Assembly: GCA_965221905.1 (NCBI GenBank)
Contig: OZ244922.1
Location: 512,001 to 576,000 of the forward strand
Reading direction: 5' to 3'
Origin: Chloroflexota bacterium
GTDB taxonomy: Bacteria > Chloroflexota > UBA11872 > VXOZ01
DNA: 64,000 bases
Shown here piece after piece: positions 23,866 to 30,207 of this stretch. The stretch's first letter is position 1; the number at the start of each line of letters is the position of its first letter. Both the position numbers and the translations under genes were made by a program. Below the pieces are notes generated by a model. It had not been told where the DNA came from, made no database searches, and saw only the letters and a list, made by a program, of their open reading frames with translations.

Positions 23866-24969
23866 ATGATCACCTATGATGACCTGAAAGTCGGCACGTT
23901 TATCAATGCGAGCGGAACTGTCACGACGTTGGGGGGCAGTCTCATGCCGGCGCCTGTAGTGGAGGCGATGGAACGGGCTGCCCAATCGTTTGTCGACCTC
24001 AACGAGCTTCACGAACAGGCGGGCGCGTGGCTGGCGGAATTTATCGGCGTGCCGGCGGCTTTCATTTCGTGCGGAGCCGCCAGTGGCATGCAACTTGCAG
24101 CCGCCGCCTGCATGACGGGGACAGACACGGACCGTGTCCGGGCGCTGCCGCAGGTTGCCGGCGGCAAGAATGAGTTCGTCATCAGCTTCGTGGACGAGCA
24201 CACGTACATTCATCAGGGAATTGAGATCGTTGGCGGCAAGCTGGCGCCCGCGGGAAGCAGAGAGAGAGTTACGACGGAGGACCTCGTAGGCGGCATCACG
24301 GAACGCACGGCGGCCGTGGTGCACTTCCTTGGCAAGCAGACCAAAGCGCAGCTTATAGAAGTGGTAGCGGGTGCGCATGCGCGAGGCGTGCCTGTGATGG
24401 TTGATGCGGCGGCACAACTCCCGCCGCGCGCAAACCTAAGAGAAATTGTGGAGTTGGGCGCCGATCTCGTCATCTTTAGCGGCGGCAAGGGCATGCGCGG
24501 TCCGCAGGCCACGGGTCTGGTATTGGGAAAACCGGAGCTTGTGGCAGCGGCACGTCTCAACGGCAGTCCGCAGAGTGCGGTGGGCAGAGGCATGAAGGTG
24601 GGTAAGGAAGAAATCATGGGTCTGCTGGCGGCGGTTGAACTTTACCTGGCCCAAGACGAGGCGGCAGAACTCGCGGGCTGGGAGCAGCAGATGCGCACGG
24701 TGGCAGCGGGTGTGGACGGCATTGACGGTGTTACCGGAGAGGTGCTGCGCAAGGATGAAGGCGCCAGTTGGGATATTGTGCCGCATACGCAGATTAGCTT
24801 CGCGGACTCAAGCCCCATGCAGGCCGCGGACGTTGCGCACGCCCTCCGCCAGGGCGAACCTGCCATCGAGGTGCGGCTCAACGAGGCTGGAATCTTGATC
24901 AGCCCCATGACCCTGGAGCCCGGCGAAGATAGCATAGTCGCTGAGCGGCTCCGCGAGGTCTTGCAGTAG
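23866..24969 (+). CDS. SelA-related PLP-dependent enzyme (DgaE-like ammonia-lyase family)
   Basis: INASGTVTTLGGS, DAAAQLPP, FSGGK (PLP Lys), GRGMKVGKEE. Confidence 0.85.
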   Translation: MITYDDLKVGTFINASGTVTTLGGSLMPAPVVEAMERAAQSFVDLNELHEQAGAWLAEFIGVPAAFISCGAASGMQLAAAACMTGTDTDRVRALPQVAGGKNEFVISFVDEHTYIHQGIEIVGGKLAPAGSRERVTTEDLVGGITERTAAVVHFLGKQTKAQLIEVVAGAHARGVPVMVDAAAQLPPRANLREIVELGADLVIFSGGKGMRGPQATGLVLGKPELVAAARLNGSPQSAVGRGMKVGKEEIMGLLAAVELYLAQDEAAELAGWEQQMRTVAAGVDGIDGVTGEVLRKDEGASWDIVPHTQISFADSSPMQAADVAHALRQGEPAIEVRLNEAGILISPMTLEPGEDSIVAERLREVLQ

Positions 24970-28713: not shown

Positions 28714-29199
28714 TTACTCCTGCTTCAGCGCGTCAACGACCGCCTGCCGATTGGGAAATCCGCCACTGAACCGCAGCCGCACCTCACCCATCCCATCGTA
28801 GACGACAAGGGCGGGCACAAAGCGTAAGTCCAGACGGTCGGCGAATGCGCTCCCGACGGGCGTATGCTGGCTGAGCCGCACGACACGCGCAGCCTCGCCA
28901 AATTCGCGCTCGATCCCATCGACCATGGGGCGGGCCGAAAGGCTGCCCCCTCAGTAGTTGGAGAACACGACTACCAGGACCGGCCGACCCTTGCCGATGA
29001 GCCGATCCAGTGCCGTGATGTTGTCGATGTTCGATTCCCGATAGCGCAGGACCGCCCCTACCGCGACCATAGCAACACTAACGAGCGCCACTAGCGCCAA
29101 GCCGGCGGGCATCGGCAGCCAAAAATAGGCCGCCGCCGCGCTGACAAGGACGGCGAATAGTGCGAGTATGATGTAGGAGTACTGGGTGACGTAATGCAT
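28714..29199 (-). CDS. Putative selenoprotein: N-terminal TM anchor plus thioredoxin fold with UxxS (in-frame TGA at 28951-28953)
   Basis: ORFs 28951-29199 and 28714-28926 are in one frame: PVLVVVFSNY-U-GGSLSARPMVDGIEREF...FVPALVVYD. Confidence 0.8.
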
Positions 29200-29444
29200 T
29201 GGACTATTCTCTTCAAGAGTTCTTCACAAAATTGTACAAGAAATTATAGCACACTCTTGCAGTGTCCAATGGGCGGTGACTATTGAGGGAATAATGTACT
29301 TAGCTTGAAACCAAGACAACGGTTTGATGTTGTTTAGCTTTGTGCTCGGCCTCTGTTTGCAACAGCAAGTCCTGATTGTGTTGCTCGCGAGACTTTGAGA
29401 TCGGCGCGGCTCTGGGGCGCGTCAATCCGCTATATGCGTCGGGG

Positions 29445-29768
29445 CTATGAAATTCGTATCGGTGGGTTCTTGCGAAGATAGCACTGTGTGCATAGGGTTG
29501 CCAGGTCTGTTCCAGGCCACTGCTGGGCCAACTCTGTTTGTGTCAAGTGCGCGCCCTCACGCACGGGTCGCCCGCAGTTTGGGGTTGCGCAAATGCGTAG
29601 CTCGATGGAGGTTCTCACGGGCTTGTGGTGCTTAGGGGATATGGGCTTTCGGGTTGTTCTGGTAGCAGGGGGTGTTTGTTGGTGTCCAGAACGGCGTGAA
29701 GCTGCAATTAGAAGCAGAAGCAGTGTTAGGAATAATACAAGAACGACTAGCACTAATAACTCTGACAA
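29445..29768 (-). CDS. Small membrane protein with a possible Zn-ribbon (CATPNC...CTQC)
   Basis: AAGGAG RBS, hydrophobic N-terminus, two Cys pairs. Confidence 0.5.
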   Translation of the reverse strand: MSELLVLVVLVLFLTLLLLLIAASRRSGHQQTPPATRTTRKPISPKHHKPVRTSIELRICATPNCGRPVREGAHLTQTELAQQWPGTDLATLCTQCYLRKNPPIRIS

Positions 29769-29802: not shown

Positions 29803-29940
29803 CTAGATGCTACTTAGGATATTCGCCTTGAGCGTTTCGTATTCGGCCTCAGAGATGAGTTCCTCGTCGAACATGGCTTTTGCCTTAGCCAATCTCTCTA
29901 CAGGATCGCTGGCGGTAGATTCCGCCCCGTTGGCGGGCAT
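29803..29940 (-). CDS. SHOCT-domain mini-protein or gene fragment (45 aa)
   Basis: MPANGAESTASDPVERLAKAKAMFDEELISEAEYETLKANILSSI matches the SHOCT pattern. Confidence 0.55.
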   Translation of the reverse strand: MPANGAESTASDPVERLAKAKAMFDEELISEAEYETLKANILSSI

Positions 29941-30065
29941 GGTGATTTCAGTGCTGCCGCGCCAAGGTCGCGTTCGATCCCATCGACGATGGGACGGGCC
30001 ACAAGGCAGCCCGCTCAGAAGTTGGAGTACACAGCTAACAGCACGGGCAGTCCCTTGCCGATCAT
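29898..30065 (-). pseudogene. Remnant paralogue of the thioredoxin-like selenoprotein (UxxC)
   Basis: MIGKGLPVLLAVYSNF-TGA(30015-30017)-AGCLVARPIVDGIERDLG aligns with 28890-29000. Confidence 0.7.
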
Positions 30066-30207
30066 CGTATCCGGCACCGTGCCGCTAAGTACGAGTACTG
30101 GTTCAAAATCTGCATTGCGATTTCCCTGGCACACGTGTTACATGGCTCAATATTGCATGCTGCGGCTAGTCTCGGTGGCCGAGAGACGCTGCGGTGGGCA
30201 GTCTCTT

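Follow-up and report, generated by a model that had tools for sequence, protein, structure and literature searches.

A predicted membrane-anchored thioredoxin-fold selenoprotein with a UxxS site and no cysteine in a Chloroflexota genome

The locus and its reading frame

The window, by which we mean the whole 64,000-nucleotide stretch that was analysed, carries on its minus strand a gene that the ORF list made with translation table 11 divides into an 82-aa ORF and a 70-aa ORF. The gene starts with the ATG at 29199 and ends with the TAA at 28714-28716, and a lone in-frame TGA is located at 28951-28953. Reading through this TGA gives a product of 161 aa, in which U83 lies within V-V-F-S-N-Y-U-G-G-S and in which the number of Cys residues is zero. 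The sequence-only reading had described two minus-strand ORFs in one frame with a single TGA between them, and its coordinates were exact. It had also proposed a 161-aa product with two N-terminal helices that standard gene callers would miss; hydrophobic stretches are indeed present at residues 10-26 and 34-50, and the standard ORF list gives only the two halves. The features of the locus are collected in Table 1.

Table 1. Positions of the selenoprotein gene, its functional sites and the adjacent paralogue remnant in the window
Feature	Position	Strand	Remarks
Selenoprotein gene, 161 aa	28714..29199	-	Two N-terminal membrane helices (predicted) and thioredoxin domain; U83-G-G-S86; no Cys
Putative extended -10 promoter	29243..29251	-	TG-n-TATAAT; found by eye; stretch conserved in G005 and G015
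Predicted membrane helix 1	29122..29172	-	Residues 10-26; after conserved N/T-Q-Y-S N-terminal motif
Predicted membrane helix 2	29050..29100	-	Residues 34-50; followed by L-R-Y-R
Val77	28969..28971	-	Site of thioredoxin buried acid (E. coli Asp26); Glu/Asp in most family members
In-frame TGA, read as Sec83	28951..28953	-	Aligns with nucleophilic Cys of thioredoxin WCGPC
Ser86 codon	28942..28944	-	AGC; replaces resolving Cys; one base off TGC
SECIS upper stem-loop	28915..28929	-	5-bp stem, 5-nt loop starting GG, 26 nt past UGA; overlaps P-M-V-D-G codons
Pro129	28813..28815	-	Invariant; matches I-P-T proline of thioredoxins in alignment (E. coli Trx Pro76)
Upstream UxxC paralogue remnant	29952..30115	-	148-nt internal deletion relative to G015; 3' third missing

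A promoter scan upstream of the gene did not find a two-hexamer site. An inverted repeat with 5-base arms at 29251-29265 (minus strand) overlaps the putative extended -10 element; it is conserved in G005 and almost unchanged in G015, and could be an operator. Word-indexed protein searches with the read-through protein gave almost no matches (one in one search and three in another), as expected because the gene is stored as halves. Contigs from the RNA libraries of one study (runs X18 and X19) cross the TGA; these contigs show neither strand nor level, are possibly derived from DNA and count as weak evidence, and the uncovered parts say nothing either way.

The upstream paralogue and the neighbouring genes

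In the genus the gene usually occurs as a tandem pair. Among 17 genomes, the UxxC and UxxS copies were both intact in eight, only UxxC was intact in five and only UxxS in four, where frameshifted copies, which may be assembly errors, were scored as broken. The UxxS form is not essential, since only UxxC is intact in five of these genomes. In the host genome the UxxC paralogue is a remnant, and therefore the Cys-free UxxS protein stands alone there. The remnant retains its TGA (30015-30017) and SECIS (29979-29993), and its deletion is common to G005.

Two further minus-strand ORFs lie between the remnant and the gene, a 107-aa ORF at 29445-29768 with one membrane helix, two Cys pairs and no family match, and a 45-aa SHOCT-domain ORF at 29803-29940 (PF09851 at cut-off). 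Contigs of runs X18 and X4 connect 29286 directly to 30155, so that related strains appear to lack the intervening stretch. The next gene in the genus encodes an NAD-dependent epimerase (15 of 15 loci), and at many other Chloroflexota loci the neighbours are EF-G, a methyltransferase and a metalloenzyme. Neighbour genes of the two-helix form include no conserved redox gene and give no clue to the substrate.

A conserved stem-loop downstream of the TGA

The sequence-only reading had placed two hairpins directly after the TGA. Both exist, but instead of following one another they overlap by three C bases (28927-28929) and are mutually exclusive. Its accompanying proposal of a SECIS downstream of the UGA holds for the second hairpin, which is conserved and covaries, and fails for the first, which is not conserved. 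The bSECIS model, as given in the accessible part of PMC13188914, has a small loop with G at its two initial positions, 16-37 nt past the UGA. Hairpin 2 (28929-28915) fits this model at 26 nt, and the 33-nt segment was calculated at -10.4 kcal/mol. In the genomic set described below, at least four of the five pairs of its stem are present in 52 of 53 TGA genes versus one of 16 Cys genes, and the Pro codon within the SECIS is CCC in 50 of the 53 versus three of the 16.

When 45 of the 53 TGA rows were compared, 89% of the cells of hairpin 2 were paired and four of its six pairs changed on both sides, including a compensatory change from A-U to G-C in 12 rows. Its covariation was higher than in 500 of 500 shuffles and in every slid control, although the rows are related and the comparison therefore yields no probability. 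For hairpin 1, 58% of the cells were paired, and its covariation was matched by 17 of 500 shuffles and surpassed by one slid control. Hairpin 1 was rejected as the SECIS, since it is not conserved, overlaps hairpin 2 and has a loop devoid of G at a distance of about 10 nt from the UGA. The folding energy of the single sequence was no better than that of shuffles in three folding windows (z of -0.15, -0.16 and -0.82), and RNAalifold gave no consensus structure on the 54-nt alignment. The sequence of the conserved peptide P-[IMTV]-V-D-G is for the most part a reflection of the SECIS RNA, a case that illustrates how recoding shapes protein sequence.

Selenocysteine machinery in the host genome

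The host genome is a single contig of 3.52 Mb and is 99.6% complete. A look for selA, selB, selC and selD in it had been suggested as a check, and all four are present. Against the NCBIfam cut-offs, selB scored 360.7 bits (cut-off 242), selA 565.6 (cut-off 268) and selD 380.4 (cut-off 125), and tRNA-SeC was detected by ARAGORN, with tRNA-Sec(TCA) distinct from tRNA-Trp(CCA). The selD gene itself has one internal TGA, and a 6-bp stem with a GTT loop, similar to the stem of the selenoprotein gene, is found 33 nt past it. Of 26 genomes with the TGA form, 25 have selB above the cut-off, and the remaining one is 86% complete. Of 16 genomes with the Cys form, 13 have it above the cut-off, so that the three well-assembled genomes without selB all have the Cys form.

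The SelA-like gene that lies 4 kb off at 23866-24969 (plus strand) encodes a PLP lyase of the DgaE family and is not selA; it scored 214.5 bits with TIGR01437 versus 49.4 bits with TIGR00474, and the true selA is elsewhere in the genome. A strict genome-wide scan for the same geometry of TGA and hairpin returned 22 sites, mostly apparent chance occurrences, and was not used as a selenoproteome. The sites G000:C1:88023 and G000:C1:818035 (both plus strand) have an in-frame TGA with this hairpin geometry in a protein-like context (after ...GGYGTG and ...DVVVEL, respectively), and could be more selenoproteins or ordinary stops.

Sec, Cys and apparent Trp homologues

A homologue with TGA at the codon 83 position was found in all 16 same-genus genomes, down to 45% protein identity, and in one of 24 other genomes of the class, likewise with TGA. 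Copies with 91-94% identical protein occur in Chloroflexota records. A profile search was made over 400 genomes of the phylum and the best loci were fetched, by which both TGA and Cys forms were recovered. After removal of canonical WCGPC thioredoxins and duplicate rows, 69 motif-independent genomic rows were obtained, with TGA in 53 (taking in two deletion remnants and two frameshifted copies), TGY in 16 and TGG in none. The sequence-only reading had made selenocysteine depend on homologues being free of Trp or other non-Cys residues at this position, and the genomic rows have only TGA or TGY; the Cys-containing homologues that it had proposed to seek by HMM were found as the 16 genomic rows and in 60 of 73 database representatives. 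Another set of 54 rows, picked by a peptide pattern that overlaps the SECIS and hence biased and kept out of the hairpin counts, had TGA in 54 of 54, all UxxC, and includes records titled Acidobacteriota and Planctomycetaceae.

At the level of protein sequences, the 73 database representatives with the N-terminal motif comprised, besides the Cys forms, 10 with Trp and three with Ser, and nine further database proteins stop exactly before the Sec position. For the Trp form P0042, the DNA had TGA in six of six fetched loci, three of which are 98% identical to P0042, and cluster mates of P0031, P0034, P0042, P0077 and P0082 terminate just ahead of the Trp. The Trp forms of the family look like mistranslated TGA, with P0042 as the basis at the DNA level. 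Public gene calls on short contigs (L157-L162; P0031, P0034 and P0042) have the Sec TGA as Trp and also read through the true TGA stop, and translation of both produces false WxxC proteins.

Judged from these genomes, the family is widespread in Chloroflexota, mostly as UxxC. Almost certainly, SelB and tRNA-Sec insert selenocysteine at the UGA of the present gene, with the stem-loop that lies 26 nt downstream as the signal. One locus, L097, in a record titled Methanosarcinales archaeon, has the same gene, a bacterial-type SECIS and the EF-G/methyltransferase neighbourhood of Anaerolineales records, and for this reason its contig is probably mis-binned.

Fold and relation to known families

An AlphaFold model built with 24 sequences (mean pLDDT 77) has two long helices and next to them a thioredoxin fold. 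The top PDB matches of the model in Foldseek were classical thioredoxins (E ~2e-7, TM 0.7-0.8 of target), and no GPx or Prx models were among the top structural matches. The family profile aligns its Cys pair with WCGPC, its proline with the I-P-T proline, a cis proline in E. coli Trx, and position 77 with the buried Asp. The earlier placement of the TGA at the position of the nucleophilic Cys thus agrees with the profile. Comparative evidence makes the product a protein of thioredoxin fold with a two-helix hairpin as its predicted membrane tether.

The 161-aa protein scored below the cut-offs of the curated families, the values being 18.6 bits for PF13098 (cut-off 27) and 18.5 for TIGR01068 (cut-off 96.8), and PF00085 gave no match at E up to 0.1. 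Among 63 family members, 56 matched PF00085 at E up to 0.001. The family has no dedicated NCBIfam model. The protein resembles Sec-containing Trx (PF00085, UxxC) and the GOS 'Trx-like 1' (COG0526, UxxC) in the thioredoxin fold, the Sec at the nucleophilic position and the downstream bSECIS, but it adds a two-helix anchor with an NQYS-like N-terminus, has Ser where the resolving Cys would be, and is without the Trp before the active site and the buried acid. It is not a thioredoxin proper, as it has Y-U-G-G-S instead of W-(C/U)-x-x-C and Val77 instead of Asp26.

A membrane-tethered thioredoxin-fold redox domain is shared with TlpA/ResA/DsbE (CcmG) and with the UGC TlpA selenoproteins, whereas the anchor of the present protein is a two-helix hairpin and its model fits the small classical Trx fold best. 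The TlpA/ResA/DsbE family models did not match the 161-aa protein at E up to 0.1, and DsbE and ResA matched three and one of the 63 members, respectively, weakly. SaoT (NF040730), VPGUxxT (NF041383), HUIPC (NF047660), TsoA/B/C/X/Y and TIGR02187 are also thioredoxin-like bacterial selenoproteins truncated by gene callers. These models did not match the 161-aa protein, and among the 63 members there were weak matches to TsoB (14, best E 2e-7) and TIGR02187 (two). The same lone Sec with Ser at +3 is found in the UxxS arsenate reductase (TIGR00014), rhodanese form 1 (PF00581) and the AhpC/TSA peroxiredoxin-like protein (cd02970), and this arrangement points to monoselenol chemistry. The 161-aa protein belongs to a different family from these; ArsC and rhodanese models matched none of the 63 members, and AhpC-TSA matched one, weakly.

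In the accessible part of the 2026 catalogue (PMC13188914), 119 prokaryotic selenoprotein families are described with Trx UxxC among them, and the words 'Chloroflex' and 'transmembrane' were not found there. The GOS survey, in its Table 2 (PMC2398784), gives Trx-like 1-3, all UxxC. Among the papers listed by full-text searches outside the subscription journals, none dealt with this family. Family members may already be entered in BSepDB (PMC13326102) under generic thioredoxin.

The UxxS variant and loss of the buried acid

The 53 TGA rows consist of 36 UxxC, 16 UxxS and one UxxR, the last being a remnant. Ser at +3 thus occurs in 16 UxxS rows versus none of the 16 genomic Cys rows, all of which are CxxC, and CxxS is seen in two of the 73 database representatives. 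Twelve UxxS rows are from the same genus and four from family f49, in which four genomes have single-copy UxxS genes. No other Cys is present in 15 of the 16 UxxS rows, the exception being a frameshifted copy read out of frame. The UxxS site had been called unusual in the sequence-only reading. It is so for a thioredoxin, but UxxS is already on record in three other bacterial selenoprotein families (PMC13188914, in the portion comprising Table 1).

A tree was made of 83 rows, from which the remnants had been omitted, as had 36 rows of the biased set of 54. On this tree UxxS requires at least three changes, possibly one gain and two losses. The Ser codons AGC, TCC and TCG are found in different branches, which favours separate origins of UxxS. 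The clade that unites both UxxS groups has a support of 94/78 and is unstarred. Taken together, the comparison of sequences favours more than one origin of UxxS, all within a single clade of loose support.

The acid six residues before the Sec is absent in all 16 UxxS rows. More broadly, the position-77 acid is absent in 32 of 32 rows of the UxxS-bearing clade and present in 81 of 87 rows outside it. Of the 73 representatives, 35 also lack it, the majority of them with the second Cys retained, and one CxxS representative has it. The buried acid is described as activating the resolving Cys (PMC9601870), and this role is contested (PMC2714181), in the parts of the two papers that are accessible.

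UxxS copies keep the TGA, SECIS and frame at ~50-60% identity to one another. The dN/dS after the TGA was 0.16-0.25 in four divergent genus pairs. It was 0.5-1.2, from few changes, in pairs with the subclade of the host genome, and these values leave room for relaxed selection on the host UxxS copy.

Membrane side and thiol partners

K/R residues are enriched in the inter-helix loop (positive bias) in 36 of 54 genomic rows and in 49 of 65 representatives. By the positive-inside rule, such an excess between the helices places the thioredoxin domain on the outer side. In the UxxS-bearing clade 29 of 30 rows show the opposite bias, by a crude count within one clade, and this suggests that the domain is cytoplasmic there. 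The charge pattern in most of the family is the one expected of a domain that faces outward, and a CcdA/DsbD carrier might serve such a domain. The host genome has two CcdA/DsbD transmembrane carriers, and such carriers serve proteins of the TlpA/ResA/DsbE type. Searches of the host genome gave no match for gshB and bshC and none over the cut-off for mshA. A general tie between acid loss and the reversed charge bias was considered and rejected, because the representatives are alike, with a positive bias in 27 of 34 that have the acid and in 22 of 31 that do not.

Proposed mechanism and alternative readings

We infer, with moderate confidence, that the protein works as a monoselenol thiol-disulfide oxidoreductase whose substrates are proteins in or next to the membrane. 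The selenolate of Sec83 would attack a disulfide or an oxidised thiol and form an Se-S bond with the substrate. Because Ser replaces the resolving Cys and there is no other Cys in the chain, this bond would be freed by an outside thiol, either a second thiol of the substrate, as in isomerase-like shuffling, or a partner redoxin. For the UxxS-bearing clade we lean slightly towards a domain that faces the cytoplasm and is recharged by TrxA/TrxR.

Several other readings were weighed against this oxidoreductase. One is a membrane peroxidase or sulfenic-acid reductase, in which a (lipid) hydroperoxide would oxidise Sec83 directly, thioredoxin would reduce it again and Ser86 would assist through hydrogen bonds. 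The predicted membrane tether and the absent resolving Cys suit such an enzyme, and UxxS, UxxT and TxxU are known in Prx-like and GPx-like selenoproteins (PMC13188914, the portion with Table 1). We consider it unlikely, because the fold and the profile match canonical thioredoxins, with the single AhpC-TSA match and the absence of GPx and Prx from the top structures noted above, and because most of the family keeps the Cys at +3. The lone Sec might also be a ligand or carrier, possibly in a dimer, for a metal, a metalloid, an Fe-S cluster or an Se/S atom. Monothiol glutaredoxins, which use CxxS, offer an analogy; the resolving Cys was apparently lost more than once, and some short-form relatives adjoin a CsoR/RicR-type repressor gene (a cluster in six loci). 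However, conserved Fe-S or metal-handling genes were not found beside the two-helix form, nor was glutathione synthetase found in the host genome, nor a glutaredoxin family among the Pfam matches of the 63 members, and we rate a ligand or carrier as rather improbable.

Equally low, in our estimate, is the chance that Sec is inserted into a UxxS copy that is merely a redundant, weakly active duplicate of the UxxC form and drifts under relaxed selection. Either paralogue is dispensable by the tally of 17 genomes, and the dN/dS after the TGA is high in the host subclade, but the UxxS copies retain TGA, SECIS and frame with low dN/dS in the divergent pairs, family f49 has single-copy UxxS genes in four genomes, and the copy that decayed in the host genome is the UxxC one. 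We regard it as highly improbable that the TGA is a true stop, whether in a pseudogene or between two small genes of which the second restarts at ATG 28926, or that it is translated as Trp. An ATG does lie 25 nt past the TGA, standard callers yield two ORFs and 10 of the 73 database proteins show Trp. The restart codon, however, is ATG in just five of the 53 TGA genes, throughout the phylum the catalytic position retains the TGA, together with a covarying SECIS that Cys genes are without, the Trp form that was checked in DNA is TGA, and tRNA-Sec(TCA) and tRNA-Trp(CCA) are separate.

Beyond the oxidoreductase itself, a wider scenario may be offered tentatively, although we regard it as doubtful. 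The family would represent uncatalogued, phylum-wide hairpin-anchored seleno-thioredoxins, of which one clade flipped to the cytoplasm, lost the acid and then repeatedly swapped the resolving Cys for Ser only in Sec members. If true, this would be a natural experiment in which Sec allows a thioredoxin to function with a single redox atom, in a host in which pathways for glutathione, bacillithiol and mycothiol were looked for and not found.

Significance and a related one-helix subfamily

A recoded, membrane thioredoxin-like protein belongs to a familiar class, and the unusual point is the loss of the second active-site Cys, which leaves none in the chain. None of the findings amounts to a new kind of system. 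Since gene callers split or mistranslate a gene that is common in Chloroflexota, the selenoprotein counts for this phylum are probably too low; an HMM for the family would be easy to build. The natural UxxC, CxxC and UxxS versions, some of them adjacent within one genome, make it possible to test cleanly whether a resolving Cys becomes dispensable once Sec is present.

A one-helix subfamily of ~135-145 aa with UxxC was also observed (loci L053-L059, L061, L064, L069, L076, L080, L084, L093, L148 and L150). Its genes often adjoin canonical trxA or genes for thioredoxin reductase (trxB), a protein disulfide oxidoreductase or a CsoR/RicR-type repressor.
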